From Gallionella sp. (GTDB lineage Bacteria; Pseudomonadota; Gammaproteobacteria; Burkholderiales; Gallionellaceae): a stretch of 64,000 nt of DNA. Under the pieces are notes generated by a model that was given only the letters and a program-made list of their open reading frames with translations, did no database searches and was not told where the DNA came from. Positions 1,808-53,375 of the stretch are shown here, in pieces; positions within the stretch are counted from its first letter, which is position 1, and each line of letters starts with the position of its first letter. The stretch covers positions 53 through 64,052 of the forward strand of contig JAQTTY010000009.1 of NCBI GenBank assembly GCA_028710525.1, in the 5' to 3' direction. Position numbers and translations under genes: made by a program.

Positions 1808-3277
1808 TTAAAGACCAAACGCAGTGCGCACTATCGAGAATACTTGGGTGTTATCCATCGTTCCCTTGAAACTTGCGGCACCCGCACCTGTTGCAAACAG
1901 CATCACATCACCACCACCATGCGTTTCACTACCAGCAGCGGTACGAACACCTGACTCTTGCATGTAGTTATCTCCCAACACCGTTGCGCTCAGCAAAGAC
2001 GTACGTGCCACGTTCACACGATTAGGTCCATTACCGAATACCAGCGTGGTGTAGTTGATACCGTTCACGTCGAGTGAATCTGCATTGGTTGCATACGAGC
2101 GATTGATATCCAAGATCGGATTGCCTATCTTTCCGTAGCCATTGAAGGTCATGGTGTGATCATGATCCGCCGTGACAACAATCAAAGTATTGGCAAGCGT
2201 AGGGTCGGTCTTCTTGACTTCGGCTATTGCGGCAGCGATTGCATCATCAAAAGCGATGGTGTCTACCAGTGCGCGCTTAGCGTTGGTGCCATGTAAAGCA
2301 TGGTCTATGCGGCCACCTTCAACCATGAGGAAATAGCCGTTGGGATTCTGCGACAACATTTGCACAGACTTGACCGTCATTTCTGACAACGTGGGTTGCG
2401 TAACGCCTGCACCAACGCCTGCCAATGTTTGCGCTGCACGATCCAACTCATACTCCAGATGACTCGTGTTGCTATACAGCCCTATAAACTTTTTAGTCGT
2501 GACAGGCGCGGCAAGCATAGCGGTCTTATCACGCGCGACTGTATATCCACCGTTTACAACTTGCTGCATCTCAACCAGTAAATCTCGGCCATCTGGACGA
2601 CCTTTAGGATTAGTCACCGCGACATAGGGGGTGAAATGATTCGCTCCCCCCCCCATAAGTACATCCACCCCAAGATCCGCACCATTGCTCAATGCAGTGT
2701 TGTAACCAACACCATTAGGTGCCAGTTGTGCAGCGATGTTGAATTGCGCGTTGCGATTGCAGATGTGAGCATAGGTGGTGGCTGGTGTTGCATGTGTCAA
2801 TTCGGTGGTAGTCACAGCGCCAACCGATTTGCCATTGAGTTTAGCCAATTCCAATATGGTCTGAACTGACGTGCCATTACCTGGTGCGCAATTGTTGACG
2901 GCATTGGCAACCATAGTGACAGGGTCAGCTGACGGCTTGTTTGCGCCGCTCGCAATGGTATTCGCCGACATCGAGATCACTTCATTGTTGGCTTTGACCC
3001 CAGTCATATAGGACGCCATCGAAGGAGCACTATCTGTAGTTTGCGCGTCATTCGAGTAGGTCTTAATACGAGCAGTGCGTTGCAATGCCTGTTCAAATTT
3101 CAAGGACCCAGCCTCACCATATTGATGGATGCGTGCTGCGGTGACCACTGTAGGTCCCATGCCGTCGCCCAAAAAGAAGATGACGTTCTTTGCTGGGCCT
3201 GCGGCATAAGCAGTACTTGAGAAGGCTACAACCAGCATCGCTGCGATATTGGTCGCTAATAGTGTGCGTTTTAACAT
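1808..3277 (-). CDS. phoA: Alkaline phosphatase (PhoA family), secreted
   Basis: Signal peptide. Motifs FFLGDGMG, TDSAPS (active-site Ser), EGGRIDHALH and VTADHDH. Confidence 0.85.
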   Translation of the reverse strand: MLKRTLLATNIAAMLVVAFSSTAYAAGPAKNVIFFLGDGMGPTVVTAARIHQYGEAGSLKFEQALQRTARIKTYSNDAQTTDSAPSMASYMTGVKANNEVISMSANTIASGANKPSADPVTMVANAVNNCAPGNGTSVQTILELAKLNGKSVGAVTTTELTHATPATTYAHICNRNAQFNIAAQLAPNGVGYNTALSNGADLGVDVLMGGGANHFTPYVAVTNPKGRPDGRDLLVEMQQVVNGGYTVARDKTAMLAAPVTTKKFIGLYSNTSHLEYELDRAAQTLAGVGAGVTQPTLSEMTVKSVQMLSQNPNGYFLMVEGGRIDHALHGTNAKRALVDTIAFDDAIAAAIAEVKKTDPTLANTLIVVTADHDHTMTFNGYGKIGNPILDINRSYATNADSLDVNGINYTTLVFGNGPNRVNVARTSLLSATVLGDNYMQESGVRTAAGSETHGGGDVMLFATGAGAASFKGTMDNTQVFSIVRTAFGL

Positions 3278-3302
3278 GTCTAACTCTCCTATTAAAAAGG
3301 GG

Positions 3303-4790
3303 TTACAAACCAGCGGCTGTTTTGATCAGCTGGAACACTTTCGTGTTGTCGATACTGCCGAAGAAGTTGGAGGAACCCATGCCGATAGCACCTAGGAATA
3401 CATCCGTACCACCATGTGTCTCCGCACCGACAGCTGTCTGGATGACGGCTTCTTGGTGATAAAGATCTGCGCTGGTAGTTGCCTCAGTTAAGGCCAAACC
3501 TGCGCGAGTGGCATTTCTGCTTTCTCCATTACCGAAACCGATGATCGAGTACGGTGCAAGGTCAGCGTCTAAATCAAACAAACCTGTAACGTAGTTTTTC
3601 ACTAGGCCAAGCACACCAGGATTAGCAGGGGTAGTTGCGCCTGTGCGTTGAGCATAGCCATTGAGCACCAATGTATGGTCATGATCCGCTGTCACCACAA
3701 TCAGGGTATTGGCCATAGTTGGATCGGTGAGCTTAACTTTGTCGATGGCGGCTTTGATCGCATTGTCAAAGGCTACGGTATCCTGCAGCGCTTTTTTGGC
3801 GTTGGTGCTATGCAATGCGTGATCGATACGCCCGCCCTCCACCATTAGGAAATATCCATTGGAATGCTGCGACAGAATATCCATGGATTTAGTCGTCATT
3901 TCAGCCAAGCTTGGTTGTGTTGCCCCGGCACCGACACCTGCTGTTGTCTGAGCGATACGATCCAAGTCGTATTCCAAATGACTCTTTGCAGAATACAAAC
4001 CTATGAACTTCTTAGCATTTGACGCTGCCAACATATCGGCTTTGGTCTTGGCGACCGTATAACCTTTTGCAGCAAATTCAGCAGTCATATCGCGTGCGTC
4101 AGCACGTCCTTTTGGATTGGTGACTGCGACGTAGGGGGTAAAGTGATTCAACCCGCCACCCATCAGCACATCTACGCCATCCAACAATGCGGAGTTGTAG
4201 CCCAGGCCACCGGGTACCAGTTGTGCTGCGATGTGGTACTGCGCATTACGGTTACAGATGTGCGAGTAAGTTGCAGCAGGTGTCGCATGGGTCAGCTCGG
4301 TTGTTGTGATTGCACCTACTCCCCATCCTTTGGACTTGGCAAGTTCAAGCAAAGTAGGAATAGATGCGCCGTTACCCGCTGCGCAATTGTTGATACCAAG
4401 GTTACCATTCGCGTCCAAGCTGGGCGGAGTGGCAACAGTACTCGGTGTCATCGAAATGACTTCATTGTTAGTCTTCACGCCCGTCATGTATGCCGCCATA
4501 GAAGGCGCACTGTCAGTTACCTGAGCATCATTTGAGTATGTCTTTACAAAAGCTGATTCAGGCAGAGTGTCGATGGTCAGACTCCCTGCTTCGCCCACTG
4601 AAAAAATTCTCGCGGCAGTCAAAGTTGTCATACCCATGCCATCACCCAAGAAAAAAATCACATTTTTCTTAATGGCAACTGGAGCGACTGCGTTTGGTGT
4701 TGTAGTACCACCGCAGCCCGCCAATAACACGCCACACGTTAGCAATCCTACTGCCGTTCTCATCCTTATCAAATCTGGTTTCATGATCAT
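3303..4790 (-). CDS. Alkaline phosphatase (PhoA family), lipoprotein paralog
   Basis: Lipobox LLAGC. Same motif set as the upstream paralog (FFLGDGMG, TDSAPS, EGGRIDHALH, VTADHDH). Sits in tandem with the 1808-3277 gene. Confidence 0.85.
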   Translation of the reverse strand: MIMKPDLIRMRTAVGLLTCGVLLAGCGGTTTPNAVAPVAIKKNVIFFLGDGMGMTTLTAARIFSVGEAGSLTIDTLPESAFVKTYSNDAQVTDSAPSMAAYMTGVKTNNEVISMTPSTVATPPSLDANGNLGINNCAAGNGASIPTLLELAKSKGWGVGAITTTELTHATPAATYSHICNRNAQYHIAAQLVPGGLGYNSALLDGVDVLMGGGLNHFTPYVAVTNPKGRADARDMTAEFAAKGYTVAKTKADMLAASNAKKFIGLYSAKSHLEYDLDRIAQTTAGVGAGATQPSLAEMTTKSMDILSQHSNGYFLMVEGGRIDHALHSTNAKKALQDTVAFDNAIKAAIDKVKLTDPTMANTLIVVTADHDHTLVLNGYAQRTGATTPANPGVLGLVKNYVTGLFDLDADLAPYSIIGFGNGESRNATRAGLALTEATTSADLYHQEAVIQTAVGAETHGGTDVFLGAIGMGSSNFFGSIDNTKVFQLIKTAAGL

Positions 4791-5189
4791 CTCGCCGCTG
4801 GTTGAAGGAGTGGCTAAGGTAGTAATCGAGCATTTCAGTAAGGTTAAATTTAAGTTAATTATTTACATCGGGACGATGCGACGTACTCAGGGAAATGAAA
4901 ATCAACTCTAAAGTGGGTGATGCACTCGAAGAGAGAATCGGATTGATTCTATGGCTGTTCTCCACTCAGGAGCTGTCATTCGAATTCTCAGATTAAGCTT
5001 CAAATTCAGCAAACCACCACCGACCGTTATGGCCGATCAGCCGCCCATCATAATTGAAGGTGAATCTCTTTCGACTTCCCCACAATTTCCGTGCATGGAT
5101 GTGTGGAGTCATTGTGGATATCCCGTTAATTGTCTTTGCGCTTAGCAAGATGTAATGGCTGTGCAAATATCGAGCACCATGCATTAGTT

Positions 5190-5295
5190 AAAAAAATGCC
5201 CCCGTGCAATCGCACCGAGGGCATAACATCTTAACGGGGTGTCAAGATACACGTTTCAGGGAGGAGACTCGTGTAGTCAGCTCGCGCCAACTTTT
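5190..5295 (-). ncRNA. Structured sRNA with a CUCCUCCC loop (copy A), anti-Shine-Dalgarno type
   Basis: On the minus strand: GNRA-loop hairpin (5276-5291). A hairpin ACACG/CGTGT encloses the loop AGUCUCCUCCCUGAAA. A further hairpin 5228-5248 has loop ACCCC. The terminator stem is 5198-5222 followed by U7. About 85 percent identical to copy B, with compensatory stem changes. Confidence 0.6.
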
Positions 5296-5424
5296 ACGTA
5301 GACTTAGCTCTGTTAAATTAGTTCCGAGCTAGTTGAGGATTTTTTTGAATGACACCTCATATATAATTGGTAGCTCAACACTCCATGAATATAGCTGCAG
5401 GAAAATCAGCAGCTAGAGCCAGAT

Positions 5425-5706
5425 ATGACCCGCTCCGAACTCATCCAACAAATCTCATCTCGTTTTCCTCAACTGACTGCTACCGATGTCGATATGGCCG
5501 TGCGGGTGATCATGGATTCGATGTCGAAAGCATTGGCTAGAGGAGGGCGCATCGAGGTGCGCGGATTCGGTAGCTTCGGTATCAATTACCGTCCACCACG
5601 GAAGGGGCGCAATCCTAAGTCGGGCGCATCGGTTATGGTGCCAGCTAAATATACGCCACACTTTAAGGCGGGCAAGGAGCTGCGCGATCGTGTTGATAAG
5701 GCCTAG
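5425..5706 (+). CDS. ihfB: Integration host factor subunit beta
   Basis: 93 aa. Strong similarity in the core to E. coli IhfB (RIE.RGFGSF....R.PR.GRNPK.G..V....KY.PHFK.GKELRDR). Confidence 0.9.
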
Positions 5707-8638: not shown

Positions 8639-8677
8639 CAGCCTTCCGAATCGATACATATTTTGCAGGGAGCATTC

Positions 8678-9913
8678 GTGGCAAATAAGGCAAAGGAATT
8701 ACCAGCATTGTCAGTTAGCAGATTGACGAAACCGGGCCTACATTTTGTGGGTGGGGTTGCAGGGCTTGCATTGCATGTTAACCAGCAGGGCGCACGCTCA
8801 TGGATATTGCGCGCCATGATAGGGGGAAAGCGTAGAGAGATGGGGCTGGGTGCATTTCCAGATGTAACGCTTGCGGGCGCAAGGGAGTTAGCTCGGATAG
8901 CGCGCGAAAAAATCAAAGAGGGAATAGACCCCATCGAGGATGGCAAAGCAAAGCGTAGCGCCTTGCTCGCGCTACGCGCCTCATCCATGACCTTCAGTGA
9001 AGCGGCCACGGCGTATATCTCGGTGATGGAGGCGGAATGGACCAACGATAAACACGCCAAGCAATGGCTAAGTACCCTGACAGCTTATGCCTTTCCCGTG
9101 ATAGGAAATATCTATGTGAGGGAGATCGACCATACACATATTGTGCGAGTGCTGGAGCCAATCTGGCTGACCAAAACAGAAACGGCAACACGTTTGCGCG
9201 GACGTATGGAGAACATACTCGACTGGACGCGTGTACGAGGCTATCGCACGGGCGAGAATCCCGCGCGCTGGCGTGGACACTTGGACATGCTATTGCCAAC
9301 ACCCGGCAAAGTTCAGAAAGTTGAACACCATCCTGCACTCCCGTTTGATGCACTAGGTGAATTTATGGTGTTGCTGCGTCAGCAAGAGGGCATGGGGGCG
9401 AGGGCGCTGGAATTTGCCATTCTTACAGCAGCACGTTCTGGAGAGGTTCGTGGGGCAAGGTGGTCCGAGATTGATCTGGATGATGCTACTTGGACAATTT
9501 CTGCCGAGCGTATGAAAGCTCGGAAAGAACATCGCGTGGCATTAAATGAAGAAGCGGTGGTTCTGCTCAAATCAATGCAGCACTCAAGTGAGTTTGTCTT
9601 TCCAAATAACAAGGGTACGCAGTTATCTGATATGACCCTGACAGCAGTGTTAAGACGCATGGGGCGTGGCAACATTACGGCGCATGGGTTCCGCTCCACG
9701 TTCCGCGATTGGTGCAGCGAGCGCACCAACTACCCGCGTGATGTCGCGGAAATGGCTTTGGCTCATACCATCAGTGATAAGGTCGAAGCTGCCTATAGGC
9801 GCGGTGATCTGTTTGAGAAACGCCGTCGTTTGATGCGTGACTGGGGAAAATTCAGCAGCAAAGTTCTGACGGTAGCTAGTGTGACTTCAATTACGGAAAA
9901 AGCAGCAGCATGA
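8678..9913 (+). CDS. int: Tyrosine recombinase, P4-type integrase (N-terminal arm-binding DUF4102-like domain)
   Basis: Catalytic R (ARSGEVRGARW), HxxR (HGFRSTFRDW), H (LAH) and Y (AYRRGD). A GTG start at 8678 with an AGGGAG SD is preferred over the TTG at 8663. Confidence 0.85.
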   Translation: MANKAKELPALSVSRLTKPGLHFVGGVAGLALHVNQQGARSWILRAMIGGKRREMGLGAFPDVTLAGARELARIAREKIKEGIDPIEDGKAKRSALLALRASSMTFSEAATAYISVMEAEWTNDKHAKQWLSTLTAYAFPVIGNIYVREIDHTHIVRVLEPIWLTKTETATRLRGRMENILDWTRVRGYRTGENPARWRGHLDMLLPTPGKVQKVEHHPALPFDALGEFMVLLRQQEGMGARALEFAILTAARSGEVRGARWSEIDLDDATWTISAERMKARKEHRVALNEEAVVLLKSMQHSSEFVFPNNKGTQLSDMTLTAVLRRMGRGNITAHGFRSTFRDWCSERTNYPRDVAEMALAHTISDKVEAAYRRGDLFEKRRRLMRDWGKFSSKVLTVASVTSITEKAAA

Positions 9914-10951: not shown

Positions 10952-11197
10952 ATGGCAAAGCAATCTGCATCGAAACCAATACCTGAAGCATTAATCAATT
11001 TTGATTCGCTCCCAGATTCAGCGAACGTCCGGCAGCCAGTCGTTCAGGGCTTGGTGGGCTGTTCGGCCGCAACTGTTTGGCGCATGGTCAAAAGGGGGAC
11101 ATTACCAAGGCCTCGCAAAATATCGACGCGCATTACAGCTTGGAATGTGGGTGAACTGAGAGAGGTCTTAGTGAAGGAAAATGGGAGTATGAAATGA
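10952..11197 (+). CDS. alpA: AlpA-family phage/island transcriptional regulator (MerR-like HTH, excisionase-like)
   Basis: 81 aa. The HTH segment VRQPVVQGLVGCSAATVWRMVKRGTLPRPRKISTRITAWNVGELREVL fits the AlpA pattern. Typical position next to a P4-type integrase. Confidence 0.7.
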   Translation: MAKQSASKPIPEALINFDSLPDSANVRQPVVQGLVGCSAATVWRMVKRGTLPRPRKISTRITAWNVGELREVLVKENGSMK

Positions 11198-11767: not shown

Positions 11768-13423
11768 ATGATCGACGACATCAAGAAAACCCTTTGGGCG
11801 ACCGCCGACAAGTTGCGCGCCAACATGGATGCGGCTGAGTACAAGCATTTGGTGTTGGGTCTGATCTTCGTCAAATATATTTCCGATACCTTTGCCGCGC
11901 GCCGTGCCGAATTAGGTCGCCGCTTTGCTGATCCTAAAGACGACTACTACCTCGACGACGCCGCGCTGTTTGCCGACGAGTTGGAAGACCGCGACTACTA
12001 CAAAGAAGTGAACGTATTTTGGGTGCCAGAAAGTGCGCGTTGGGAAGCGTTGCGCGCTGCGGCCAAGCAGCCGGACATCGGCAAGCGCATCGACGATGCG
12101 CTGACAGTTATCGAAGCAGAAAATCCTAAGCTCAAGACCATCCTCGACAAGCGCTATGCCCGCGCGCAGTTGCCGGATGGCAAGTTGGGCGAGCTGGTGG
12201 ACATGGTTTCCACCATCGGTTTTGGCGTTGATCCCGGCAAAGCGCGGGATGTGCTGGGGCAGGTCTATGAATATTTCCTGGGTCAATTTGCTAGCGCCGA
12301 AGGAAAGCGCGGCGGGCAGTTCTACACGCCTGCCAGCATCGTCAAAACCTTGGTCGCTGTGCTCGCGCCGCATCACGGCAAGGTGTATGACCCCTGTTGC
12401 GGGTCGGGTGGGATGTTCGTGCAATCAGAAAGATTTATCGAAGCGCACGGCGGCAAGATAGGTGACGTGGCAATCTTCGGGCAGGAATCCAACCCCACTA
12501 CATGGCGCTTGGCGGCGATGAACCTCGCTATACGTGGTATCGACTTCAACCTCGGCCGTGAGCCGGGCGACACCTTCACTAAGAACCAGCACACCGATCT
12601 ACGTGCCGATTTTATTCTGGCCAACCCGCCGTTCAACATCAGCGACTGGTGGCACGGCAGCCTGACGGGTGATCCGCGCTGGGTATATGGCGACCCACCG
12701 CAGGGCAACGCCAACTATGCATGGCTGCAACACATGCTGTATCACCTCAAGCCCACAGGGCGCGCAGGCATCGTGCTGGCGAATGGCTCGATGAGCTCCA
12801 GTCAAAACAGCGAGGGCGAGATACGCAAAGCCATGGTCGAAGCCGACGTAGTGGAAGTGATGATCGCGTTGCCCGGCCAACTGTTCTTCAACACCCAGAT
12901 ACCCGCCTGCCTGTGGTTTCTTGCCAAACAAAAAACCACAAGACAAGGCGAAGTGCTGTTCATTGACGCACGCAAACTCGGCAGCATGATTAGTCGTGTG
13001 CAAACCGAATTCACCGATGAAGTGATAGAACGTATTGCCGCTACGGTTGCCGCATGGCGTGGCGATACCGTAGGGGCGCAATTTATTGCGCCCGAATCAG
13101 CAGGGCGCGATGAATCACGCCCCTACGCAAAAACCGCTCGCCCTGAGCCTAATAATTCCGTTCGCCCTGAGCCAGTCGAAGGGGGGCACTACGCAGACAT
13201 CCCCGGCTACTGCCGCAGTGTGAAGCTAGAAGAAATCGCCGAACACGGCCACGTCCTCACTCCCGGTCGTTACGTCGGTGCGGAAGAGGTGGAAGACGAT
13301 GACGAAGCTTTTGCCGACAAGATGCAGAAGCTCACCGAAAAACTGGGCGAGCAAATGGCGAAAGGAGCAGAGCTAGACGCTTTGATCCGGCACAAGCTGG
13401 GAGGGCTGGGGTATGAGTTCTGA
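11768..13423 (+). CDS. hsdM: Type I restriction-modification system methyltransferase subunit HsdM
   Basis: N-terminal HsdM_N-like segment. SAM motif [10 protein letters not shown] and catalytic NPPF ([13 protein letters not shown]). Overlaps the hsdS start. Carries a REP-like in-frame insertion at about 13070-13186. Confidence 0.9.
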
Positions 13424-14774
13424 GCAAACTCGCTCACTTCGAGATTTTGTTAGCCTTCAACGAGGAACAACCTACAAAGGAAATCTCGTTGGACTGCCCG
13501 GGCCTGTATTGCTGGGTTTAGCATCAATTAAACCTAACGGTGGTTTCCGTTATGGTGGTTTCAAAACTTATGGCGGTGAGTGTCCAGAGAAAATATCTCT
13601 TCGATCCGGTGATTTGTACGTATCGCTAAAAGATGTCACTCAATCAGGTGACTTACTCGGCTCCGTTGCTAAAATTCCTACTGATATTGAATCAGGTCGT
13701 CTCACTCAAGATACCGTCAAACTGGTTTTTGATGGCGCGCCAACTTCAAAGGACTACCTTTACTGGTTACTTCGAACCCCAGCATACCGTGATTACTGCC
13801 GAGGTTGTGCCACTGGAACCACAACTTTAGGACTAGCAAGGGATGACTTCCTCAACTACCCAGTTCCCAATCCTAGTGAAGCAGATATGGTGTTGGTTGA
13901 GCTGCTAGAAGGAATTGAGAAGCGTATTACCCTTCTGAGCGAAACCAACGCCACGCTGGAAGCCATTGCGCAGGCGATGTTCAAATCGTGGTTTGTCGAT
14001 TTCGATCCCGTCCACGCCAAACAACAAGGCCTCGCCCCCGAAGGCATGAGCGAAGCCATACCCGCAAGGGGTACGCCGGTGTGTGCCCCGGGCGTTCCGC
14101 CCGACCCTTCCGCTGCCGCCGCGCTATTCCCCGACAGCTTCGAGGAATCGGAACTGGGCTTGGTGCCGAGGGGGTGGCGCACAAGTGCTGTGTACGATCT
14201 GGCGCAGTACATCAATGGTGCTGCATATAAAGCATTTGAGCCGAACGCTGAGCAACGCGGTCTGCCGATTATTAAGATTGCAGAACTTAAAGCTGGCGTT
14301 ACTAAACAGACAGGTTATTCAGATGTCAGCATGCCTGAAAAATACAGGATAGCTACTGGAGATATTTTGTTCTCTTGGTCTGGAAATCCTGATACATCCA
14401 TTGATACTTTTGTCTGGCTTCATGGCGACGCTTGGCTCAACCAGCATATCTTCCGAGTTGTTCCAAGTACATCAAGTGACCGTTCATTTGTCTTGATGAC
14501 GCTCAAGTACCTGAACCCAATATTCGCAGAGATTGCACGAAATAAACAAACCACAGGGTTAGGCCATGTAACTGTTGCCGACTTGAAAAGGCTGCGTGTA
14601 GTTAAACCGAGTGATGCAGTGCTTCAGCAATGGAATGAGATTGTTGATCCATTGATTGAGAGAGCATTAAATGTTCAGCAGCAAGCCCAAACCCTCGCCA
14701 CCCTCCGCGACACACTGCTCCCCCGCTTGATTGCTGGCAAAATTAGTATTTCAGGACAGGAGGGGGTTGTATGA
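13413..14774 (+). CDS. hsdS: Type I restriction-modification specificity subunit HsdS
   Basis: Two low-GC target-recognition domains separated by high-GC conserved helices ([35 protein letters not shown]). Sits in an operon with hsdM. Confidence 0.85.
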
Positions 14775-15325
14775 AGTTACGGCTATTTTCATCGGTCATT
14801 ATTTTCCTGAGTGCTTATTCACCGCTTGCCATTATTTTCTGCATTCAGAATTATGATTTCGAGAAACAAGAAATGCTGCACCCGCACATTATTTGGCCGA
14901 TTCTTGGCTTGGCAGTGGTGAGCTGCATTATTTTGTGGGCAACAGTGAGTCTTCCAAAAGTTTCAAAAGCACCAGTTACCGTTAGAGCGGTATCAAACAA
15001 GTCGAGCGAGTTGGTCAGCTACACGATCCCGTACATGGTTTCCTTTTTTGTAATTGAACACTGGAATACCCAGCTTCTCATTAGCTTTGCCTTTTTCATG
15101 TTCATCATGTTTTGGTTGACGCTCAAAACGCACACTATCTTCAACAACCCTATTCTTGCCATGTTGGGATACAACATCTTTGATGTGCATTATGAAAAGA
15201 ATGGCAGGGAGTATCAAGATTACTGGCTGGCGAAGGGCGGGCGACTAAGGAAAAACGAGCAATGCCGGATTGTTGAAATTTCAGAGCAACTTTATCTAGT
15301 CACAGAACGTAACCCAGAGGTGTAA
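14771..15325 (+). CDS. Four-TM membrane protein, KwaA-like (Kiwa component A candidate)
   Basis: 184 aa with about 4 predicted TM helices and a cytosolic tail. ATGA overlap with the hsdS stop and a strong SD (GGAGGGGG). About 38-40 percent GC inside an hsd operon of about 58 percent GC. Confidence 0.5.
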   Translation: MKLRLFSSVIIFLSAYSPLAIIFCIQNYDFEKQEMLHPHIIWPILGLAVVSCIILWATVSLPKVSKAPVTVRAVSNKSSELVSYTIPYMVSFFVIEHWNTQLLISFAFFMFIMFWLTLKTHTIFNNPILAMLGYNIFDVHYEKNGREYQDYWLAKGGRLRKNEQCRIVEISEQLYLVTERNPEV

Positions 15326-15327
15326 GC

Positions 15328-16272
15328 ATGGAAGAAAAAAAGAAGCTGCTTGCTAAAATTAAATCACTTGACTGGTCTCGTGCCAGCGTTTCTCTCTACT
15401 TGATCAAACGCACGCTAGTTCATCGACAAGCCACCTACGATGTTCTGCAAGTCAATGCCGATGATAAGTTGCGAAAAAGGTTGAGAGGCATTGCTAGCAG
15501 CAAGATTCAGCAGTCAAACAATGCACTTGAATATGACTTCCATACCGCCGATTTAGATGACAACCTTCTTGGTATTGCCACATCTGAAACAGATTTCCAA
15601 GACATTATAGATGTCATTGCCGCAGAAGATGAACCGGGCTTTGCGGATTCAATTGAACAGTTAATTGACTCGTGGCTCTATATCGCTCGCTTAGATATTG
15701 CTGGGAAACCGCCGATGTATGCGGCACGACGCGTATCCGAGGGCTGGACAACGAAGAAGGTCTCGCAGCTTATCAGCATGATTTTCCAAGACAACATGCT
15801 GGTTGATATTGAGCAGAAAGAGATATTCCGAATAGACGGGAAGGTGGATTTTTTCTCCTACGATGGCACGACGTTCATAGCGGACAAGAAGAATTTCGAG
15901 ACCGCCCTGAACTTCAGGGAAGGAATGGAACGTAACCGCGATGAAATTGTAGATGAGTTCCATTCCCTCAATCTGTTTGAGAATGCCGCTGAGATTTCGG
16001 CCTTGGTCGGTGACAACATTCGTCGTTTGCGACGATTGTCTCAAGTCAAGAAAGCTGCTTATTACAAGGATGCCAACTTTTTGGCGAATCTAAAAAGAGT
16101 GAATGCTGAAGAAGGCTGGGGGATAAAGTATTCCGCACATGGGAAGCTGTTAGTCACAGAGGAAGACATTGAAATAGTTTTGCGTGTACTGAATAACGAC
16201 CGCTTAACATCGAAGATAAACTCCGAAAATTTTGATGTCGATGTGAAGCATAAGCTAGGTAGTCCAACTTGA
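15328..16272 (+). CDS. Soluble 314-aa protein, KwaB-like (DUF4868-like; Kiwa component B candidate)
   Basis: Starts 3 nt after the membrane-protein stop, with SD GAGGTG. Size and pairing with a 4-TM partner match Kiwa. The family was assigned from memory and not searched. Confidence 0.45.
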   Translation: MEEKKKLLAKIKSLDWSRASVSLYLIKRTLVHRQATYDVLQVNADDKLRKRLRGIASSKIQQSNNALEYDFHTADLDDNLLGIATSETDFQDIIDVIAAEDEPGFADSIEQLIDSWLYIARLDIAGKPPMYAARRVSEGWTTKKVSQLISMIFQDNMLVDIEQKEIFRIDGKVDFFSYDGTTFIADKKNFETALNFREGMERNRDEIVDEFHSLNLFENAAEISALVGDNIRRLRRLSQVKKAAYYKDANFLANLKRVNAEEGWGIKYSAHGKLLVTEEDIEIVLRVLNNDRLTSKINSENFDVDVKHKLGSPT

Positions 16273-16666: not shown

Positions 16667-17740
16667 ATGACCTCCATCTTGCCCTTGGAACAACTGAAAG
16701 CCGGTCGCTTCGATACGCCTGCTATCCTTAAGAAGTTGGCGAGTAGTAGCCGTAAGCTGGCGGAGCTTAAGGGCATCGCGGCATCCATTCCCAATCAGGG
16801 CATTCTGATCAACACGCTGGGCATGCAGGAAGCCAAGGATAGTTCAGAAATCGAGAACATCGTCACCACGCAGGATGAAATTTTCAAGCAGGAAGTGTTA
16901 CCCGATGCTTTTGCCAATCCGGCTGCCAAAGAGGTACAACGTTATCGGCAGGCTTTGCGGCTGGGCTATGAGCAGGTGCGGGAGAGTGGGCTGATTACGG
17001 CAAATCACATCATCGCGATTCAATCAGAGTTAGAACAAAGTCATGCGGGGTTTCGCAAGTTGCCTGGCACCGCATTGAAAAACAACCGTGGTGAGACGGT
17101 TTATGCCCCGCCACAAGACCCAAGCGAGATCATTGCGCTGATGCGGGATCTGGAGCGATTTATCAATGATGATGCGTTGTATCAGGTCGATCCGCTGATC
17201 AAGATGGCTTTGTTACATCATCAGTTCGAAAGTATTCATCCGTTCTACGACGGCAATGGTCGCACTGGGCGCATTTTGAATGTGCTGTATCTGGTTAAGG
17301 AAGGCTTACTGGAGGTACCAGTGCTGTATTTGAGCAGCCATATCGTGCGCACCAAGGCAGATTACTACCGCTTGTTGCAGAAGGTGCGCGATGATGATGC
17401 GTGGGAAGAATGGGTGTTGTATATGCTGGAGGCAGTGGAACAAACCGCCGGGCAAACCCTGACTACGGTGCAAGACATTAAGGCTGCTTTATTCGACTAC
17501 AAGCACCGCATCCGTGCGGGGTTTAAGTTTTATAGTCAGGATTTGATCAATAACTTGTTTGCGCACCCTTATACCAAAATTGAATTTGTACAACGCGACT
17601 TGGGCGTGTCGCGCCTGACAGCTACCAAATATATTGATGCATTGGCTGAAGCGGGATTTGTGCAGAAACATAAAATCAAGGGCAGCAATTACTACATCAA
17701 TGTCGCGCTGAATCAGATTCTGCTGGGAAATCAGCAATGA
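16667..17740 (+). CDS. fic: Fic family protein (AMPylase/Fido domain with Fic-N and a C-terminal wHTH)
   Basis: Canonical motif [13 protein letters not shown]-terminal PN.GILIN.L...EA..SSEIENI pattern. Stop overlaps the hsdR start (ATGA). Confidence 0.85.
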
Positions 17741-20700
17741 CCGAAGACCAACTCGAACAGGAAGCACTAGGCTGGCTTGCGGCAGTGGGCTACTCGCATT
17801 TGTACGGCCCCGATATTGCAGTTGATGGCGATAGTCCTGAGCGTAGCGATTATCGGCAGGTGGTGCTGGTGGAGCGTTTGCGTTCTGCCGTTGCGCGACT
17901 AAATCCGGCGATCCCTGCGGCGGCGCGTGAGGATGCGATTGGGCAAGTGCTTGATCTAGGTACACCAGTGCTGCTCTCCGCTAATCGGCGTTTCCACCAA
18001 CTGCTGGTGACGGGCGTGCCGGTGCAATATCAGAAAGACGGCGAGACACGCGGCGACTTTGTGCGGCTGATCGATTGGGCTGATTCATCATTCCCTCCCC
18101 CTGGCAGGGGGAGGGCTAGCGAGGGGGTGGGAACGCTATCGTCCAAAGCATCTACCCCCATCCCAACCTTCCCCCTGCAAGGAGGAAGGAGTGAGTTTGA
18201 TGTCAACGGTTCATCTGGCCTAAACGAGTTCCTCGCCATCAACCAGTTCTCCATCAAGGGCGCACACCACACGCGCCGACCGGACATCATCCTGTTCGTG
18301 AATGGCTTGCCGCTGGTGTTGCTGGAACTTAAAAATCCCGCTGATGAAAACGCAGACATCTGGAAAGCCTACGACCAGATTCAAACTTATAAAGAGCAAA
18401 TTTCCGACGTGTTTCTGTACAACCAGATTCTGGTGATATCGGACGGCAGCGAGGCGCGTTTGGGTTCGTTGTCGAGCGATGCCGAGCGCTTTATGCAGTG
18501 GCGTACGATTGATGGTGCGACGCTTGATCCGTTGGGACAATTCAATGAGCTTGAAACGCTGATACATGGCGTGCTCGCGCAAGCTTATCTGCTCGACTAC
18601 CTGCGCTACTTTGTGTTGTTTGAAGATGACGGCACGCTGGTGAAGAAGATTGCGGGCTATCACCAATTCCATGCGGTACGTGCGGCGATCAATCAGGTGG
18701 TGGTGGCTTCGCGCCCCGGTGGCACGCACAAGGGTGGAGTGGTGTGGCACACGCAAGGGAGCGGCAAGAGCATCACCATGACTTGCTTTGCCGCGCGCGT
18801 GATGCAGGACGTGGCGATGCAGAATCCGACTATTGTGGTCATCACCGACCGCAACGATTTGGACGGGCAGTTGTTCGGCGTGTTTTCGCTGGCGCAGGAT
18901 TTGTTGCGCGAACAACCCGTGCAAGCCAATACCCGCCAAGACTTGCGCGCCAAGTTGGGCAACCGTCCTTCCGGTGGCATCGTCTTTGCGACGATACAGA
19001 AGTTCATGCTGGGCGAGGATGAGGACACTTTTCCTATCTTGTCTGAACGCAGCAATATCGTGGTGATCGCCGATGAAGCGCACCGCACGCAATATGGCTT
19101 CGAGGCCAAGCTCAAGTCCATCAAGACACCCCGTGTGGCGGCAAACGATGCACAAATCTTGCAGGTTGCCGAAGCGCCCGCCGAGTATTTGTCACGCTTC
19201 CAAGTGGGCTATGCGCAGCATCTGCGCGATGCTTTGCCCAATGCCACCTTCGTTGCCTTTACCGGCACGCCAGTCTCCAGCGAGGACCGCGACACCCGTG
19301 CGGTGTTTGGCGACTACATCCATATATATGACATGCAGCAGGCCAAGGAAGATGGCGCGACCGTGGCGATCTACTTTGAGTCGCGTCTGGCTAAGTTGTC
19401 GCTTAAGAGCGAAGAGCTACCTTTGCTGGACGATGAAGTGGACGAGCTGGCCGAGGATGAAGAGGAAAGCCAGCAAGCCAAACTTAAGAGCCGCTGGGCT
19501 GCGCTAGAACGAGTGGTCGGTGCGGAGCCGCGTGTTGCCAGTGTGGCTAAAGACTTGGTGGCGCATTTTGAGGAACGCAGCAAGGCGCAGACCGGCAAGG
19601 CGATGGTGGTGGCGATGAGCCGCGAGATTTGCGTGCATCTGTATAACGAGATCATCAAGCTGCGCCCCGATTGGCATGATGCCGATCCTGAAAAGGGCGC
19701 GATCAAGATTGTGATGACCGGCTCGGCCAGCGATAAGGCGTTGCTGCGTCCGCATATCTACAGTGGCCAAGTGAAGAAGCGTTTAGAGAAACGCTTCAAA
19801 GACCCTGCTGATCCGCTGCGGATGGTGATTGTGCGCGATATGTGGCTGACGGGTTTTGATGCGCCTTGCGTGCATACCTTATATGTAGATAAACCGATGA
19901 AGGGCCACAACCTAATGCAGGCCATCGCGCGGGTGAACCGCGTTTTCAAAGATAAACAAGGCGGCTTGGTGGTGGACTACATCGGTATCGCCAATGAATT
20001 GCGCAGTGCCTTGAAGGAATACACCAACAGCAAGGGGCGCGGCCGACCAACGGTGGACGCCCACGAAGCTTATGCCGTGCTCGAAGAAAAGCTCGATGTG
20101 TTGCGCGGCATGCTGTGCGACTTCGACTACAGCGACTTTTTAACGCATGGCCACAGGATGTTGGCCGGTGCGGCCAACCATGTGCTGGGTTTGAAAGACG
20201 GCAAGAAACGTTTTGGCGATACCGCGCTGGCGATGAGCAAAGCCTTTACCTTGTGCTGCACCTTGGATGAAGCCAAGGCGGTGCGTGAAGAGGTGGCCTT
20301 CTTCCAGGCAGTTAAAGTCATCCTGACCAAACGCGACATCAGCCAGCAGAAACGTACCGACGAAGCGCGTGAACTGGCGATCCGGCAGATCATAGGCTCG
20401 GCGGTGGTGTCCGAAGAAGTCGTGGATATCTTCAATGCGGTGGGCTTGGATAAGCCCAACATCGGCATTCTGGATGATGCTTTCCTCGCTGAGGTGCGCA
20501 ATCTGCCAGAACGCAATCTGGCGGTGGAGTTGCTGGAGCGTCTATTAGAAGGCGAAATCAAAACCCGCTTCGCAGGCAACATCGTGCAAGACAAGAAATT
20601 CTCTGAGTTGCTGTCCGATGTCATCAAGCGCTACCAGAACCGTGCTATCGAGACGGCGCAAGTCATCGAAGAATTAATCGAGATGGCTAAGAAATTCAGG

Positions 20701-21015
20701 GCGGCGGCGGAGCGGGGCGATGAACTAGGCCTGACTGAAGATGAGATTCGCTTCTACGATGCGCTGGCGGACAATGAATCGGCAGTACGCGAACTGAGCG
20801 ATGAGATCCTGAAGAAGATTGCCCATGAGCTGACTGAAAACCTACGCCAGAACCTAAGTGTGGACTGGTCGCAACGCGAAAGTGTGCGGGCCAAGCTGAG
20901 ATTGATGGTGAAACGCATTCTGCGTAAATATAAGTATCCGCCTGACATGCAAGATGCGGCGGTTGAGCTGGTCTTGCAACAGGCACAGGCACTAGGGGAG
21001 GCGTGGGGACGGTAG
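17737..21015 (+). CDS. hsdR: Type I restriction endonuclease subunit HsdR
   Basis: 1092 aa. Nuclease-domain segment [20 protein letters not shown], Walker A TQGSGKS and the DEAH box ([10 protein letters not shown]). REP-like in-frame insertion at about 18086-18225. Confidence 0.9.
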
Positions 21016-21232: not shown

Positions 21233-21541
21233 TCAATAATCAACTGCTGATTCGTCCCAATCCTCTCGCTGGTCCAAATCAATTTCAATGTGATTGGGCT
21301 GCGAATCAATCCTAGCTCCCTTGTGATTCCAAGGTAAGTCGACTGCAGATCCCATGTGATTCCAAGGTAAGTCGACTGCAGATCCCATGTTGATCCAAGG
21401 TAGATCGACTGCAGATCCCATGTAATTCCAAGGTAGATCGACTGAATTTCCTTTGATATTCGATTTCAGCTCATTCCCAAAACGAACATTAATTCGACTG
21501 TATTCCATCGGCTTTTTGCAGCAATTGTGTAGCACTCTCAA
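21233..21541 (-). CDS. Questionable ORF encoding 11-residue repeats (GSAVDLPWNHM)
   Basis: 102-aa ORF whose core is the 33-bp tandem repeat. No SD or motif support. Confidence 0.25.
   Translation of the reverse strand: MRVLHNCCKKPMEYSRINVRFGNELKSNIKGNSVDLPWNYMGSAVDLPWINMGSAVDLPWNHMGSAVDLPWNHKGARIDSQPNHIEIDLDQREDWDESAVDY
21323..21447. repeat. 33-bp tandem repeat, about 3.7 copies (gtgattccaaggtaagtcgactgcagatcccat)
   Basis: Copies at 21323-21355 and 21356-21388 are identical, 21389-21421 is a variant, and a partial copy starts at 21422. Confidence 0.85.
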
Positions 21542-22005: not shown

Positions 22006-22662
22006 ATGTGCAGCCACTACGAAACAGTGAATGACCTCCAGTCCCTAAAGTCACACTTCACAGTGGCGGAGGTGCCTGAAATCGGCAGGCTCGACCTTTG
22101 GCCTGGATACTTGGGACCCTTTATAAAGAACCAAGAGAGTTCATCAGAAGGAGCTCGCCACGCTCTACTCGGCTCGTTTGGCCTAGTACCCCATTGGGCG
22201 TCTGACACCAAGATTGCTCGCAATACCTACAACGCGCGCTCAGAGACTGTTGCCGATAAACCTAGCTATAGAGATGCATGGCGTTTAGGGAGAAGGTGCA
22301 TCATCCCAGCAGGTGCGGTATATGAGCCTGACTGGCGATCGGGAAAAGCTGTCGCTGCTCGTATTTCGCGTGTGGATGGCAAACCGATGGGAATAGCTGG
22401 CTTATGGTCGGTGTGGAAAGATGCAAAGGGCGATATCCTGCACAGCTACACAATGCTGACCATCAATGCGGACGATCATCCACTAATGAATCAATTCCAT
22501 AAGCCGGCAGATGAAAAGCGCATGGTTGTGATTCTCCCTGAGAATGAGTATGGTAATTGGTTGTGCTCTGATACAAACGGGGGGCGTGCATTCTTGCAAG
22601 CGTACCCAGCTGAGCTCCTAACGAGTGAATCCAAGTTAGCGAATGGAAATAAGGTGGCATGA
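22006..22662 (+). CDS. SOS-response-associated peptidase (SRAP/YedK family, abasic-site DNA-protein crosslinking)
   Basis: Starts with MC (catalytic Cys2). 218 aa. Family-typical NARSET and P-M-AGLW segments. Confidence 0.75.
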   Translation: MCSHYETVNDLQSLKSHFTVAEVPEIGRLDLWPGYLGPFIKNQESSSEGARHALLGSFGLVPHWASDTKIARNTYNARSETVADKPSYRDAWRLGRRCIIPAGAVYEPDWRSGKAVAARISRVDGKPMGIAGLWSVWKDAKGDILHSYTMLTINADDHPLMNQFHKPADEKRMVVILPENEYGNWLCSDTNGGRAFLQAYPAELLTSESKLANGNKVA

Positions 22663-22763
22663 CGACGAACCGATTGCCTCAATGAGCAGTATCAGCAAAG
22701 TCATCTACCAAAAATATTTTTATGTAACGATTGAACTGATTTGTTTTGAACCACTCTCAACCT

Positions 22764-22868
22764 GCAGTTAGCGAAAGCTTGCTGCACGAATCTCCTCCCT
22801 GAAACGTGTGTCTCGACACCCTGTTGAGATGTTCCGCCCCTGGTGCGATTGCACAGGGGCATTTTTTT
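22764..22868 (+). ncRNA. Structured sRNA with a CUCCUCCC loop (copy B)
   Basis: GAAA-tetraloop hairpin 22764-22785. Stem CACG/CGTG encloses the loop AAUCUCCUCCCUGAAA (22791-22800 core). Hairpin TCTCGAC-ACCCT-GTTGAGA at 22811-22829. Terminator stem 22836-22860 followed by T7 (22862-22868). Confidence 0.6.
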
Positions 22869-23051
22869 GCCTGCACAAAGTAGGCTCAAGATTTGCACTG
22901 CACCAGCATCTAGTTTAGTTCAAATGCATTCATATGGATTTCCACACATTGGCGCACGGGATATGTGGGTAAGTCCATATACTCGCCTATAAATTCTGCT
23001 AGAACGGTTTACAACAATCCTTGAATCTATCGCATACCAAGTTGGCGTCAT

Positions 23052-23141: not shown

Positions 23142-24329
23142 ATGGATCACTTCTCTATCATCTTGGGGCTTTGTCGTTCCGCTTTGCAAACATCCAATCC
23201 GGCTGTGGTAGGTCATGTCCAGCGCCTTGTACGGGCACTTGAAAAGGATAATGTTCCTCAACAGGTTAGTGCGTTAAAAAAGCTAATGGCGTCAGAGGAA
23301 GCGTTGGCCGAGATTACCCCAAGTCGCGTTGTTTTATCTCGTAGGTCATTGTCTGGAGAAATACTTACGCCAAGCGTTACGTCACCAGTCGACAAAGAAA
23401 CTGGGGCGCCATTAGCTGAAATTGTGCATGCCCGAAAAGGGGATGCTCTACAGCCACTATTCATTCCCGCACTTGCAACTGGAATAAATACTCTACTTGA
23501 AGAGTGGTCTCACGTTGACGAGTTACGAGCAGCCGGTGTGCGTCCAGCATTAGCCACTATGCTCTTTGGTGCACCTGGTACAGGCAAAACAATGCTTGCA
23601 CACTATATTGCCGCACAACTGGAGCTGCCGCTAATAGTGGCCCGATTAGATGGGCTTATATCATCGTTTCTTGGTACAACGGCTCGTAACATTTCCAATC
23701 TATTTTCGTTTGCAAACCGATACAAGTGTGTACTCTTACTTGATGAGTTTGATGCGGTTGCAAAGTTGCGTGACGACCCACACGAATTGGGTGAAATAAA
23801 ACGTGTAGTAAATACTCTTCTGCAATGTATTGATAGTCGCTCAGAGCTCGGATTTACCATAGCAATCACGAATCATGAATCTCTCCTTGATCCTGCAGTC
23901 TGGCGACGTTTTGATGTTCGAATTGAGGTACCGAAGCCGAACGCACTAACCCGCGTTGAGATTTTGCGTCGTCAGTTTGATGCGTCCATGTTGGATGAGA
24001 CATACCTTAGATTTTTGGCGTGGATTACTGATGGCTATAGCGGTTCGGATGTGGAAAAACTGGCGGATTTTTTGAAGAGGCAAAAGGCTATTCAAAAAGC
24101 AAACTTTGATTTCTTCACTGGGGTGAGAAGCTATGTACAGATGAGCGCCTATGAAGGAGGATCGCATAATCGATCGTTGGTAGCAGCAGACCAAGAAATT
24201 CTTGCGCGTACCTTAGTTAGTGATGAATCTATACCATTTAGCCAGGAACAATTGGCAACACTGTTTGGGTGTACTCAGCCGACTATTAGTCGTTGGCTAA
24301 AGAATAAAACAATTAGTGGAGTTAAATGA
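23142..24329 (+). CDS. AAA+ ATPase with a C-terminal HTH (IetA-like)
   Basis: Walker A GAPGTGKT, Walker B VLLLDEFD, arginine-finger region. C-terminal LATLFGCTQPTISRWLKNK HTH. Stop overlaps the next start (ATGA). Confidence 0.7.
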   Translation: MDHFSIILGLCRSALQTSNPAVVGHVQRLVRALEKDNVPQQVSALKKLMASEEALAEITPSRVVLSRRSLSGEILTPSVTSPVDKETGAPLAEIVHARKGDALQPLFIPALATGINTLLEEWSHVDELRAAGVRPALATMLFGAPGTGKTMLAHYIAAQLELPLIVARLDGLISSFLGTTARNISNLFSFANRYKCVLLLDEFDAVAKLRDDPHELGEIKRVVNTLLQCIDSRSELGFTIAITNHESLLDPAVWRRFDVRIEVPKPNALTRVEILRRQFDASMLDETYLRFLAWITDGYSGSDVEKLADFLKRQKAIQKANFDFFTGVRSYVQMSAYEGGSHNRSLVAADQEILARTLVSDESIPFSQEQLATLFGCTQPTISRWLKNKTISGVK

Positions 24330-27072: not shown

Positions 27073-27163
27073 TGGCGGAGAAGGGGGGATTCGAACCCCC
27101 GTTGGGATATTATCCCAAACACGCTTTCCAGGCGTGCGACTTAAACCACTCATCCACCTCTCC
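27073..27163 (-). tRNA. tRNA-Ser (anticodon GGA)
   Basis: The reverse complement reads GGAGAGGTGGATGAGTGGTTTAAGTCGCACGCCTGGAAAGCGTGTTTGGGATAATATCCCAACGGGGGTTCGAATCCCCCCTTCTCCGCCA. It has a 7-bp acceptor stem, anticodon loop CUGGAAA, a long variable arm, a GTTCGAATC T-loop and an encoded CCA. Confidence 0.9.
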
Positions 27164-42555: not shown

Positions 42556-42652
42556 TCCACGAAAGACACGAAAAGCACGAAATAAAATCAGTTTAGAAAG
42601 TGTGCTGATATTGATGCGTTTGTTTGTTCGTGCTTTTCGTGTCTTTCGTGGA
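42556..42652. repeat. 26-bp perfect inverted repeat with a 45-nt spacer in the hpnC-hpnD intergenic region
   Basis: TCCACGAAAGACACGAAAAGCACGAA (42556-42581) and its exact reverse complement (42627-42652). Confidence 0.85.
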
Positions 42653-52224: not shown

Positions 52225-53375
52225 CAGAATTTAGTAAAATCACAGCATGGCACTCCACACTAAAACGCTCAAGCTACGCATCAAAGACAAGCACTCAAAA
52301 GTATTGTCGCAGTGGGCGTTCGAGGTTAATCAGGTGTGGAATTCAGCGAACGAACTTAGTGCTAATTATTCGTGGGTACCGATACCGGGTGTTGGGTACA
52401 TGAATTGTGGAACATCAGAGTTCGACTTGAACAAGGAACTGCGTTCTATCCGTGCAGAGCGCGGCTTGAGCATCGGTGCAGCCACAGTACAGTCTGTGAT
52501 TGCCCAACATGCCAAATCCAGACGGCAGTTCAAGAAGAACAAACTGCAATGGCGTAGCTCTAGCGGTTCAAAGCGCGCACTAGGCTGGGTTCCGTTCAAG
52601 CAGGCCGGTATTAAATTGGTCGGCGGACAGATTCGGTTTTGTGGACAGCATTTCGGTGTTTGGGATAGCTATGGACTGTCTAACTACGAACTCGGCACTG
52701 GTTCGTTCTCGCAGGATGCACGGGGACGCTGGTATTTCAACACTACCGTTCAGGTTGAAGCGAAGCCCAGTACCGGCACCAAGTCAGTCGGTATCGACCT
52801 AGGACTCAAGGCTACAGCAACTTGCTCTGACGGAGAGAAGTTGGAACGCAGATACATCACCAATGAGTTTGCTGCGCAGCTGGGCATTGCTCAGCGCGCA
52901 AACAAAGCGCATCGTGTTAAAGCGATCCACGCCAAGATTAAGAATTTTCGGCAGGATGCCATTCACAAATTCACGACCAGTATGGTCGAGAACTACGGAG
53001 CGGTCTTTGTCGGTGACGTGAGTAGTAAGAATCTGGTGAAAACCAGCATGGCCAAGTCGGTACTGGATACTGGCTGGGGTATGCTGAAAGAACAACTCTC
53101 CTATAAAGCGATAGCGCGTGGAGTTGTATTCGAGGAAGTCCCTGAAAATTACACAACCCAAACTTGTTCGTGTTGCGGTGAAATATCCGTTAACAGTCCG
53201 AAAGGTAGAGCGGGTCTTGGAATAAGAGAGTGGTCCTGTGCCTTGTGTGGCATGCTGCACGATAGAGATATCAATGCAGCAAAGAACATTCTTGCGCGCG
53301 GGCATGCGCGTCTAGCAGTAGGAATCCCCTGTCTTTAGGCAGGGGAGGATGTCAATTCGGTCTAGTCTGTATTTG
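52200..53375 (+). mobile_element. IS200/IS605-family derivative carrying only tnpB (no tnpA)
   Basis: tnpB ORF plus the characteristic right-end hairpin CCCCTGTCTTTAGGCAGGGG spanning the stop codon. Left boundary is approximate and abuts the VOC gene's 3' end. Confidence 0.55.
52247..53338 (+). CDS. tnpB: RNA-guided endonuclease TnpB (IS605 OrfB family)
   Basis: RuvC-I GIDLGLK, zinc finger CSCCG..CALCG, RuvC-III HDRDINAAKNI and the typical C-terminus LAVGIPCL*. Confidence 0.85.
   Translation: MALHTKTLKLRIKDKHSKVLSQWAFEVNQVWNSANELSANYSWVPIPGVGYMNCGTSEFDLNKELRSIRAERGLSIGAATVQSVIAQHAKSRRQFKKNKLQWRSSSGSKRALGWVPFKQAGIKLVGGQIRFCGQHFGVWDSYGLSNYELGTGSFSQDARGRWYFNTTVQVEAKPSTGTKSVGIDLGLKATATCSDGEKLERRYITNEFAAQLGIAQRANKAHRVKAIHAKIKNFRQDAIHKFTTSMVENYGAVFVGDVSSKNLVKTSMAKSVLDTGWGMLKEQLSYKAIARGVVFEEVPENYTTQTCSCCGEISVNSPKGRAGLGIREWSCALCGMLHDRDINAAKNILARGHARLAVGIPCL

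Follow-up and report, generated by a model that had tools for sequence, protein, structure and literature searches.

A real, structured small RNA gene, conserved and present in two copies, occupies positions 5190-5292 (minus strand) and 22766-22868 (plus strand) of the 64,000-nucleotide stretch of Gallionella sp. DNA analyzed here, referred to throughout as the window. We hold with moderate confidence that the copies are two paralogous genes for a trans-acting small RNA (sRNA) of ~103 nt, which would belong to the anti-hemB/ncS04 type and would act as a repressor by Shine-Dalgarno pairing.

Two copies, their fold and their homologs

A repeat search of the window returned the two segments as an inverted pair of 103 nt, with 84% identity between copy A (5190..5292, minus strand) and copy B (22766..22868, plus strand). 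The 19-mer TCTCCTCCCTGAAACGTGT is found at 5249-5267 (minus strand) and 22791-22809 (plus strand) only, with 0.01 occurrences expected by chance in the window. The first-pass annotation, made from the letters of the window, had put the copies at 5190-5295 (minus strand) and 22764-22868 (plus strand), and they are where it placed them; judged by promoter geometry (see below), the 5′ ends likely lie 3 and 2 nt inside those limits, at ~5292 and ~22766. Homology between A and B is wider than the span given in that annotation, running from ~-60 upstream of the RNA to ~115 nt beyond the terminator.

Each copy folds with a z of −4.4, and none of 200 shuffles folded equally well. From 5′ to 3′, each copy begins with a hairpin capped by a GNRA loop; the second hairpin has a loop of 16 nt, and a third precedes the terminator and its U7, which is the four-element architecture previously proposed for both. 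In copy A, read on the minus strand, hairpin 0 (5275-5292) is AGUUGGC-GCGA-GCUGACU with the loop GCGA, hairpin 1 (5249-5274) has the stem ACACG/CGUGU around the loop AGUCUCCUCCCUGAAA, and hairpin 2 (5228-5248) has the arms AUCUUGAC and GUUAAGAU and the loop ACCCC. A GUUAU linker leads from there into the bulged GC-rich hairpin of the terminator (5198-5222) and the U7 tract (5190-5196). Copy B (22764-22868, plus strand) has the same plan, with hairpin 0 (loop GAAA) at 22766-22783, hairpin 1 at 22784-22809, hairpin 2 at 22810-22830, the terminator at 22836-22860 and the U7 tract at 22862-22868, all on the plus strand. In both copies CUCCUCCC sits in the 16-nt loop of the second hairpin, where an anti-Shine-Dalgarno-like motif had been pointed out.

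Differences between the copies were read against this fold. The pair in the third hairpin that had been taken as compensated (arms TCTCGAC/GTTGAGA in B) is U-A in A, against C-G in B, and the ortholog L010 has the U.G intermediate. In the terminator, the paired changes that had been described are also borne out: a C-G pair is replaced by U-A and the neighboring U.G by C-G. The GNRA loop that hairpin 0 was said to keep on different stems is confirmed, in three versions: GCGA in A, GAAA in B and, in other loci, GCAA. In the stem of this hairpin the changes between A and B are one-sided only and one pair is broken in B; the hairpin is thus kept, yet it is not strictly compensated.

Homologs were collected by three routes. 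An 18-mer scan of species-representative genomes gave 11 matches, two of which are homologous: L004, from a Gallionellaceae MAG, and L010, from the MAG of an uncultured betaproteobacterium. The other nine are about the number expected by chance, and the three of them matched by the covariance model described below scored just 8-12 bits. Contigs carrying close homologs of ihfB, the gene next to copy A, added L013, L014 (identical with L015), L016, L029, L030 and the truncated L031; these close ihfB homologs carry the name Gallionella sp. A metagenome scan with the 18-mer added one locus, L028. Note that the 18-mer pattern proved too strict, because the flanks of the loop vary (L030, L031). In all, eight further full copies were obtained, on related metagenome and MAG contigs, and they preserve the fold. 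Homologs of ihfB at 70-88% identity (L017-L027) are all without the sRNA, so synteny offers no route to more distant homologs.

Seven sequences were used to build a covariance model (R1), a kind of check that had been suggested, and it recovers 10 full copies, A and B included. All score between 113 and 137 bits (135 for copy A and 121.6 for copy B), and a search of the whole window with filters off gave no match beyond A and B. Identity of the RNA to copy A is 92-98% in the orthologs. For the same orthologs compared with the copy A locus, the ihfB coding sequence is 84-93% identical and the sRNA-ihfB spacer 79-85%, so that the RNA is conserved more than the neighboring coding sequence and the intergenic spacer. 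One further, decayed copy was observed at 2328-2420 (minus strand) of L013. It is B-like, scores 38 bits with R1 and is without the 5′ arm of hairpin 1; it lies just after the ihfB stop codon, so that ihfB is flanked there by direct repeats of the sRNA.

Among the nine distinct sequences, standard pairs make up 98.5% of pair cells, a value that falls to 29-48% when the 3′ partners are slid. Both-sided changes were found at three pairs: 53-65 (U-A, U.G and C-G), 80-94 (C-G to U-A in three sequences) and 23-48. The covariation score and the count of doubly changed cells were reached by none of 500 shuffles. Because the homologs are related and of low diversity (one genus-level clade), the covariation rests on few events, and as evidence for an RNA gene it should be regarded as supportive, not conclusive. 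In L016 exactly the bulged G of the terminator is missing. Only the given strand accommodates the U7 tract and the four G.U stem pairs, and the strand of the sRNA is settled. Orthologs, compensatory changes, strand-specific G.U pairs, a promoter and a terminator together bear out the earlier view of a structured RNA and not a random repeat.

Probable kinship with the anti-hemB/ncS04 RNAs

Scanned against Rfam at gathering thresholds, the window yields tRNA-Ser alone. The sole significant non-tRNA Rfam match in the window is anti-hemB (RF02837), which covers the model from end to end (1-81/81) and scores 36.1 bits in copy A and 36.7 bits in copy B. E values are ~1e-6 locally; with the full window searched against all 4227 families they are 6e-5 and 9e-5. 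The orthologs score 35.7-43.8 bits, with top values of 41.9 and 43.8 and an E of 7e-8 for L016; note that all of these scores, from copies and orthologs alike, are under the gathering score of 49.5. There is no hemB in the window, where the neighbors are ihfB, a PhoA-like gene, SRAP and IteA. By gathering score or by hemB linkage, the RNA is not a certified member of anti-hemB.

The anti-hemB motif, known from Betaproteobacteria and chiefly from Burkholderia, was described as probably representing a non-coding RNA that carries a terminator (Weinberg et al. 2007, PMC1950547). According to a 2026 preprint, the family extends over Burkholderiaceae, Comamonadaceae and Chromobacteriaceae and is mostly upstream of hemB but sometimes decoupled from it. 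In B. cenocepacia J2315, anti-hemB corresponds to ncS04, a 105-nt RNA confirmed by Northern blot and RACE and encoded between hemB and engB (PMC5688073). It was reported to be bound by Hfq (PMC5688073, citing Ramos et al. 2013), and its expression was unchanged in every condition tested (PMC5688073, Table 2).

In our fold of ncS04, the 5′ hairpin abuts one whose loop, UCCUCCCU, has a C-G closing pair. The third hairpin has a loop of 5 nt and is followed by a short linker containing GUU, the terminator and U7. The tree-edit distance between this fold and that of the present RNA is 26, against 85 ± 16 for shuffles (minimum 42), while aligned identity is just ~60%. The RNAs thus have in common their occurrence in Betaproteobacteria, a length of ~103-105 nt, four hairpins in the same order with hairpin 0 abutting hairpin 1, the 8-nt loop UCCUCCCU with its C-G closing pair, GUU in the linker ahead of the terminator, and U7 at the 3′ end. 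There are also differences. Every stem differs in sequence from its counterpart in anti-hemB/ncS04; hairpin 1 has a 2×2 internal loop here, which makes its nominal loop 16 nt; and hairpin 0 has a GNRA tetraloop here and a 3-nt loop in ncS04. In position, ncS04 is upstream of hemB (BCAL0264), whereas the present genes are beside ihfB or within a defense island, and their copy number is two or more. The RNA here is accompanied by a putative promoter of the sigmaE type and by a conserved downstream element, neither of them reported for ncS04. From the sequence and the modeled structures we conclude that the RNA is most probably a diverged Gallionellaceae lineage of the betaproteobacterial anti-hemB/ncS04 kind.

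The first-pass annotation had looked elsewhere for relatives, namely to the cuckoo RNAs and the Betaproteobacteria toxic sRNA, and on this point the Rfam comparison went against it and gave RF02837 instead. With the toxic sRNA family (RF02278), copy A scored 20.3 bits (E 0.12) and copy B gave no match. Membership of RF02278 needs at least 50 bits, two hairpins and two CU motifs, and the present RNA has one CU motif and four hairpins. What it does have in common with the toxic, double-hairpin sRNAs (ncS03, ncS05, ncS27 and ncS62) is a CU-rich anti-Shine-Dalgarno motif with GUCUCCUCC in it, several gene copies per genome, a terminator with a U tail and a presumed action by occlusion of the ribosome-binding site; those RNAs differ in their length of 57-92 nt, their two hairpins and their pair of CU motifs, of which the first is right at the 5′ end. 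No alpha-r14/CcsR cuckoo family was matched in Rfam around either copy at E up to 10, and the motif is single here. CcsR cuckoo RNAs of Alphaproteobacteria consist of repeated hairpins that each carry CCUCCUCCC, and their genes are often downstream of a small protein gene. The likeness to alpha-r14/CcsR is in a C-rich motif of the CCUCCUCCC type in hairpin loops and in multi-copy genes.

Putative promoters, the C-rich loop and a proposed mode of action

Each copy is preceded by a putative promoter of the ECF sigmaE/AlgU type. For copy A it lies at 5298..5325 (minus strand) and consists of GGAACTA (5319-5325), a 16-nt spacer and TCTAC (5298-5302). The candidate for copy B, at 22732..22759 (plus strand), has the same geometry, with TGAACTG (22732-22738), a 16-nt spacer and TCTCA (22755-22759). 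The -10 box ends 6 nt ahead of the first base of hairpin 0. The pattern GAACT-N17-TCT occurs twice in the 128 kb of strand that the two strands of the window represent, and these occurrences are the -35/-10 of A and B. Both boxes are kept in all orthologs while the spacer varies, and the upstream sequence around the boxes of B is otherwise dissimilar to that of A. A simple sigma70 scan found no promoter at these sites. The AlgU consensus is GAACTT-N16-17-TCtgA (PMC3819740) and the -35 element of E. coli sigmaE is GGAACTT (PMC1540707). Copies A and B both fit the GAACTT-N16-17-TCtgA type at the correct distance from the 5′ end, from which we infer that both depend on sigmaE/AlgU. Since each gene appears to have its own promoter of this type, transcription is probably switched on by envelope stress. 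Envelope-stress sRNAs that depend on sigmaE or AlgU, with promoters of the GAACTT-N16-17-TCtgA type, include MicA, RybB and MicL in enterobacteria and ErsA in Pseudomonas; they have Hfq-type terminators and repress translation of envelope-related mRNAs. We know of no sequence or structural likeness between these RNAs and the present one, nor of any whose seed mimics the anti-Shine-Dalgarno sequence, and the dependence suggested here is a consensus match only.

A conserved promoter for each copy also bears on whether the element might act in cis, as the leader or attenuator of a downstream gene or as the terminator module of a 3′-UTR, instead of in trans. We rate this very improbable. Copy B, after SRAP, and the decayed copy in L013, after an HTH gene, do directly follow a co-oriented gene, and a cis role of the motif on the strand opposite hemB has been left open (Weinberg et al. 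2007, PMC1950547). Copy A, on the other hand, is divergent from ihfB and downstream of no gene. The genes that follow vary from locus to locus (PhoA-like, IteA, DUF2442, HTH_3 or a contig end), and in L013 and L014 the gene past the downstream element is convergent with the sRNA. In addition, a strong terminator with U7 stands ahead of the downstream genes.

Under the preferred reading, as a trans-acting sRNA, the part that would make contact with targets is the C-rich loop of the second hairpin. The sequence UCUCCUCCCUG, at 5257..5267 (minus strand) in copy A and 22791-22801 (plus strand) in copy B, is identical in 10 of 10 full copies. Within it is the apical 8-nt loop UCCUCCCU with its C-G closing pair; this loop is common to ncS04, and fold computation gave an unpaired probability of ≥0.99 at all 8 of its bases. 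The flanks are free to change: in L030, GA(G/A) is replaced by UU and AAA by CG, with one base fewer, and UCUCCUCCCUG is left unchanged. The seed is therefore both invariant and accessible. Its complement is GGGAGGAG, an extended Shine-Dalgarno sequence.

The proposed sequence of events would be as follows. Envelope stress would activate the sigmaE/AlgU-type promoters and the sRNA would be synthesized from each gene. Its strong intrinsic terminator would end the RNA and leave a U7 tail which, as in ncS04, would suit Hfq binding; a dependence on Hfq may be presumed by analogy. Hairpin 1 would hold UCCUCCCU single-stranded for pairing with the ribosome-binding sites of selected mRNAs, and this pairing would keep the 30S subunit from loading and reduce translation. 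Stability and a scaffold for protein binding would come from the remaining three hairpins. Repression by Shine-Dalgarno occlusion through a CU-rich loop is plausible in view of the Burkholderia sRNAs with unpaired CU-rich stretches, whose predicted pairing is mostly across ribosome-binding sites (PMC5688073).

Potential targets were sought within the window by a duplex scan of its 53 start regions, which gave no enrichment for seed pairing; the mean duplex energy at starts was −8.2 kcal/mol, compared with −9.2 in gene interiors and −9.3 when the seed was shuffled. The best seed complement in the window is UUUCAGGACAGGAGGGGG (−17.9 kcal/mol, 14741-14782), at the start of ORF 14771-15325, which lies between hsdS and the KwaB-like gene inside the defense island; this match could be due to chance. 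The scan thus named no specific target, which would also be expected of an sRNA that works as a decoy or sponge, whether by mimicking the 3′ end of 16S rRNA, by titrating a protein or RNA, or by being toxic to growth, with no Shine-Dalgarno occlusion. The anti-Shine-Dalgarno-like seed would fit such a role, as would GUCUCCUCC, which it has in common with the 5′ end of ncS03 and ncS05. So would the finding that overexpression of ncS27 slows growth, with an RNA antisense to its CU region doing the opposite (PMC5688073). We nevertheless think a decoy improbable: the absence of GGA motifs from the loops speaks against a CsrA/RsmA sponge, RF02278 was not matched significantly, and toxic sRNAs have two CU motifs where this RNA has one. 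Repression of selected mRNAs through the seed is preferred.

Genomic surroundings and the downstream element

The gene divergent from copy A, at 5425..5706 (plus strand), is ihfB, for the beta subunit of integration host factor; it scores 142 bits with NCBIfam NF001222, whose cut-off is 115. A module of ~680 bp, made up of the downstream element (DE), the sRNA and ihfB, is the only part common to the window and the related loci (~5017-5705), and no similarity to those loci was found beyond ~5017 or past the ihfB stop codon. The flanks of the module are mosaic and differ per locus; the genes that flank it in L004 and L010 are absent from the window. Downstream of copy A, at 1808-4790 (minus strand), are two tandem PhoA-like (alkaline phosphatase) paralogs that score well under the NCBIfam cut-off.

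Copies A and B are inverted around a 17.5-kb integrase-bearing defense island. Between them are ihfB, a P4-type integrase (8663-9913), AlpA (10952-11197), type I restriction-modification genes (HsdM, HsdS and HsdR; 11768-14774 and 17737-21015), a KwaB-like gene (15328-16272), Fic (16667-17740), a 395-aa gene of no known identity, an AAA/Lon-like ATPase and SRAP (22006-22662), which is co-oriented with copy B and directly before it. Five tandem 33-nt units (AGATCCCATGTGATTCCAAGGTAAGTCGACTGC) were observed near the right end of the island, at 21281-21478. The unit has GGTAAGTC in common with the end of the DE of copy B (in A, GGGAAGTCGA), and the related loci are without it. An IteA/IteS-like pair (anti-phage ATPase and S8 peptidase; 23142-26746), both members under their NCBIfam cut-offs, lies between copy B and tRNA-Ser(GGA) at 27073-27163, after which core genes follow.

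The DE is a non-coding segment found directly 3′ of the terminator in both paralogs and all orthologs, in which its identity is 87-93%. For copy A it is located at 5073..5189 (minus strand), with a core at 5073-5124 formed by an inverted repeat, TCCACA / TGTGGG, and then AAGTC. For copy B it is at 22869..22975 (plus strand); there it has just one TCCACA arm, and 11 nt present in A are deleted. The core pattern is GGAT(A)TCCACA...CACGGRAWWTGTGGGNAAGTC, and A/B homology runs to ...TGTGGG(G/T)AAGTC. The DE was duplicated along with the RNA. Several identities were tried for it. A structured RNA was ruled out because covariation is lacking on either strand, and an Rfam scan of the DE gave no match. 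A small protein on the sRNA strand was ruled out because the ORF is stopped in L004. One on the opposite strand, 'MADQPPIIIEGES..PCMDVWSHCGYPVNCLCA', was rejected despite a frame that is open in all A-type loci: its variable columns are distributed 11/12/9 over the codon positions, its stop codon is unconserved, and copy B is without the ORF. No consensus match was found to a sigma70 or sigma54 promoter or to a terminator, the -24 GG and -12 GC being unconserved by eye. The conservation of the DE is left unaccounted for by the sRNA model.

A DE conserved with neither an RNA nor a coding signature would be easier to understand if the repeat were a DNA-level feature of a mobile element, the promoter-sRNA-DE unit being an island end or attachment site and the RNA traits secondary. 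The inverted copies bracket 17.5 kb that hold a P4-type integrase, AlpA and defense genes; the ~680-bp module stands between flanks that differ per locus; two contigs of ENA ERZ25039499 start just past the DE; in L013 the decayed additional copy lies across ihfB from the full one; and related ihfB-like genes adjoin integrases and a tRNA. We nonetheless consider such an origin of the repeat unlikely. The copies are inverted and just 84% identical, unlike att duplications, and a search for direct repeats of the 3′ ends of tRNA-Ser and ihfB or of the DE flanks gave none. Substitutions in stems are compensated and the loop of hairpin 0 is always GNRA, the RNA has its own promoter and terminator, and its nearest known relative is a chromosomal, expressed sRNA. 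Searches of viral contigs, phage records and plasmids gave no match to the sRNA or DE, and viral contigs held no close relative of ihfB. At the outset it had been considered that the segment might turn out to be the end of a known mobile element. It did not, but the copies do stand in mosaic, island-rich surroundings and bracket the integrase segment. That the promoter-sRNA-DE unit is a portable cassette which marks, and perhaps mediates, turnover of the defense island, with the DE (TCCACA...TGTGGG-AAGTC) as the site of recombination or attachment, is quite improbable in our estimate; were it true, the copy on the island side would let the element draw on the host's envelope-stress (sigmaE) control of translation.

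Other observations were made on these contigs. The ihfB-like genes of L017-L027 (70-88%) are found by an integrase and a tRNA, Fic, HicB/TacA, a topoisomerase gene and small ORFs, surroundings that are typical of mobile elements. Beyond the DE, L004 (~470-525) and L016 (1-20) have an insert that looks like a small REP/MITE-like element: a 51-nt palindrome, CTCGGCCTTATGT...ACATAAGGCCGAG, between the copies of a CTCGGCC duplication. L001 and L016 (contigs 7455 and 3060 of ENA ERZ25039499) begin 20-45 nt past the DE. At least five contigs of that sample contain the module, in differing surroundings, suggesting that the sample holds several strains that are related or that the assembly breaks at a repeat. 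Elsewhere in the window, inverted repeat arms of 26 nt (TCCACGAAAGACACGAAAAGCACGAA) match perfectly across a 45-nt spacer at 42556-42652, between hpnD and hpnC, and a gene for a TnpB of the IS200/IS605 type (RNA-guided endonuclease family) is found amid core genes at 52247-53338 (plus strand).

The preferred reading, of a trans-acting sRNA that may repress by Shine-Dalgarno pairing, represents an incremental gain: it offers a better family model and a regulatory hypothesis, with no new mechanism. The parts most deserving of further attention are the DE and the island-bracketing arrangement. If the kinship holds, C-rich-loop sRNAs of the anti-hemB/ncS04 type now extend to the iron-oxidizing Gallionellaceae, where standard Rfam annotation misses them. 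Over ~40% sequence divergence, selection would then have kept the UCCUCCCU loop and the four-hairpin plan, and linkage to hemB would be dispensable. The sigmaE/AlgU-type promoter, for its part, leads to a testable idea about timing, namely that the RNA would be made under envelope stress, and this idea may be transferred to Burkholderia.
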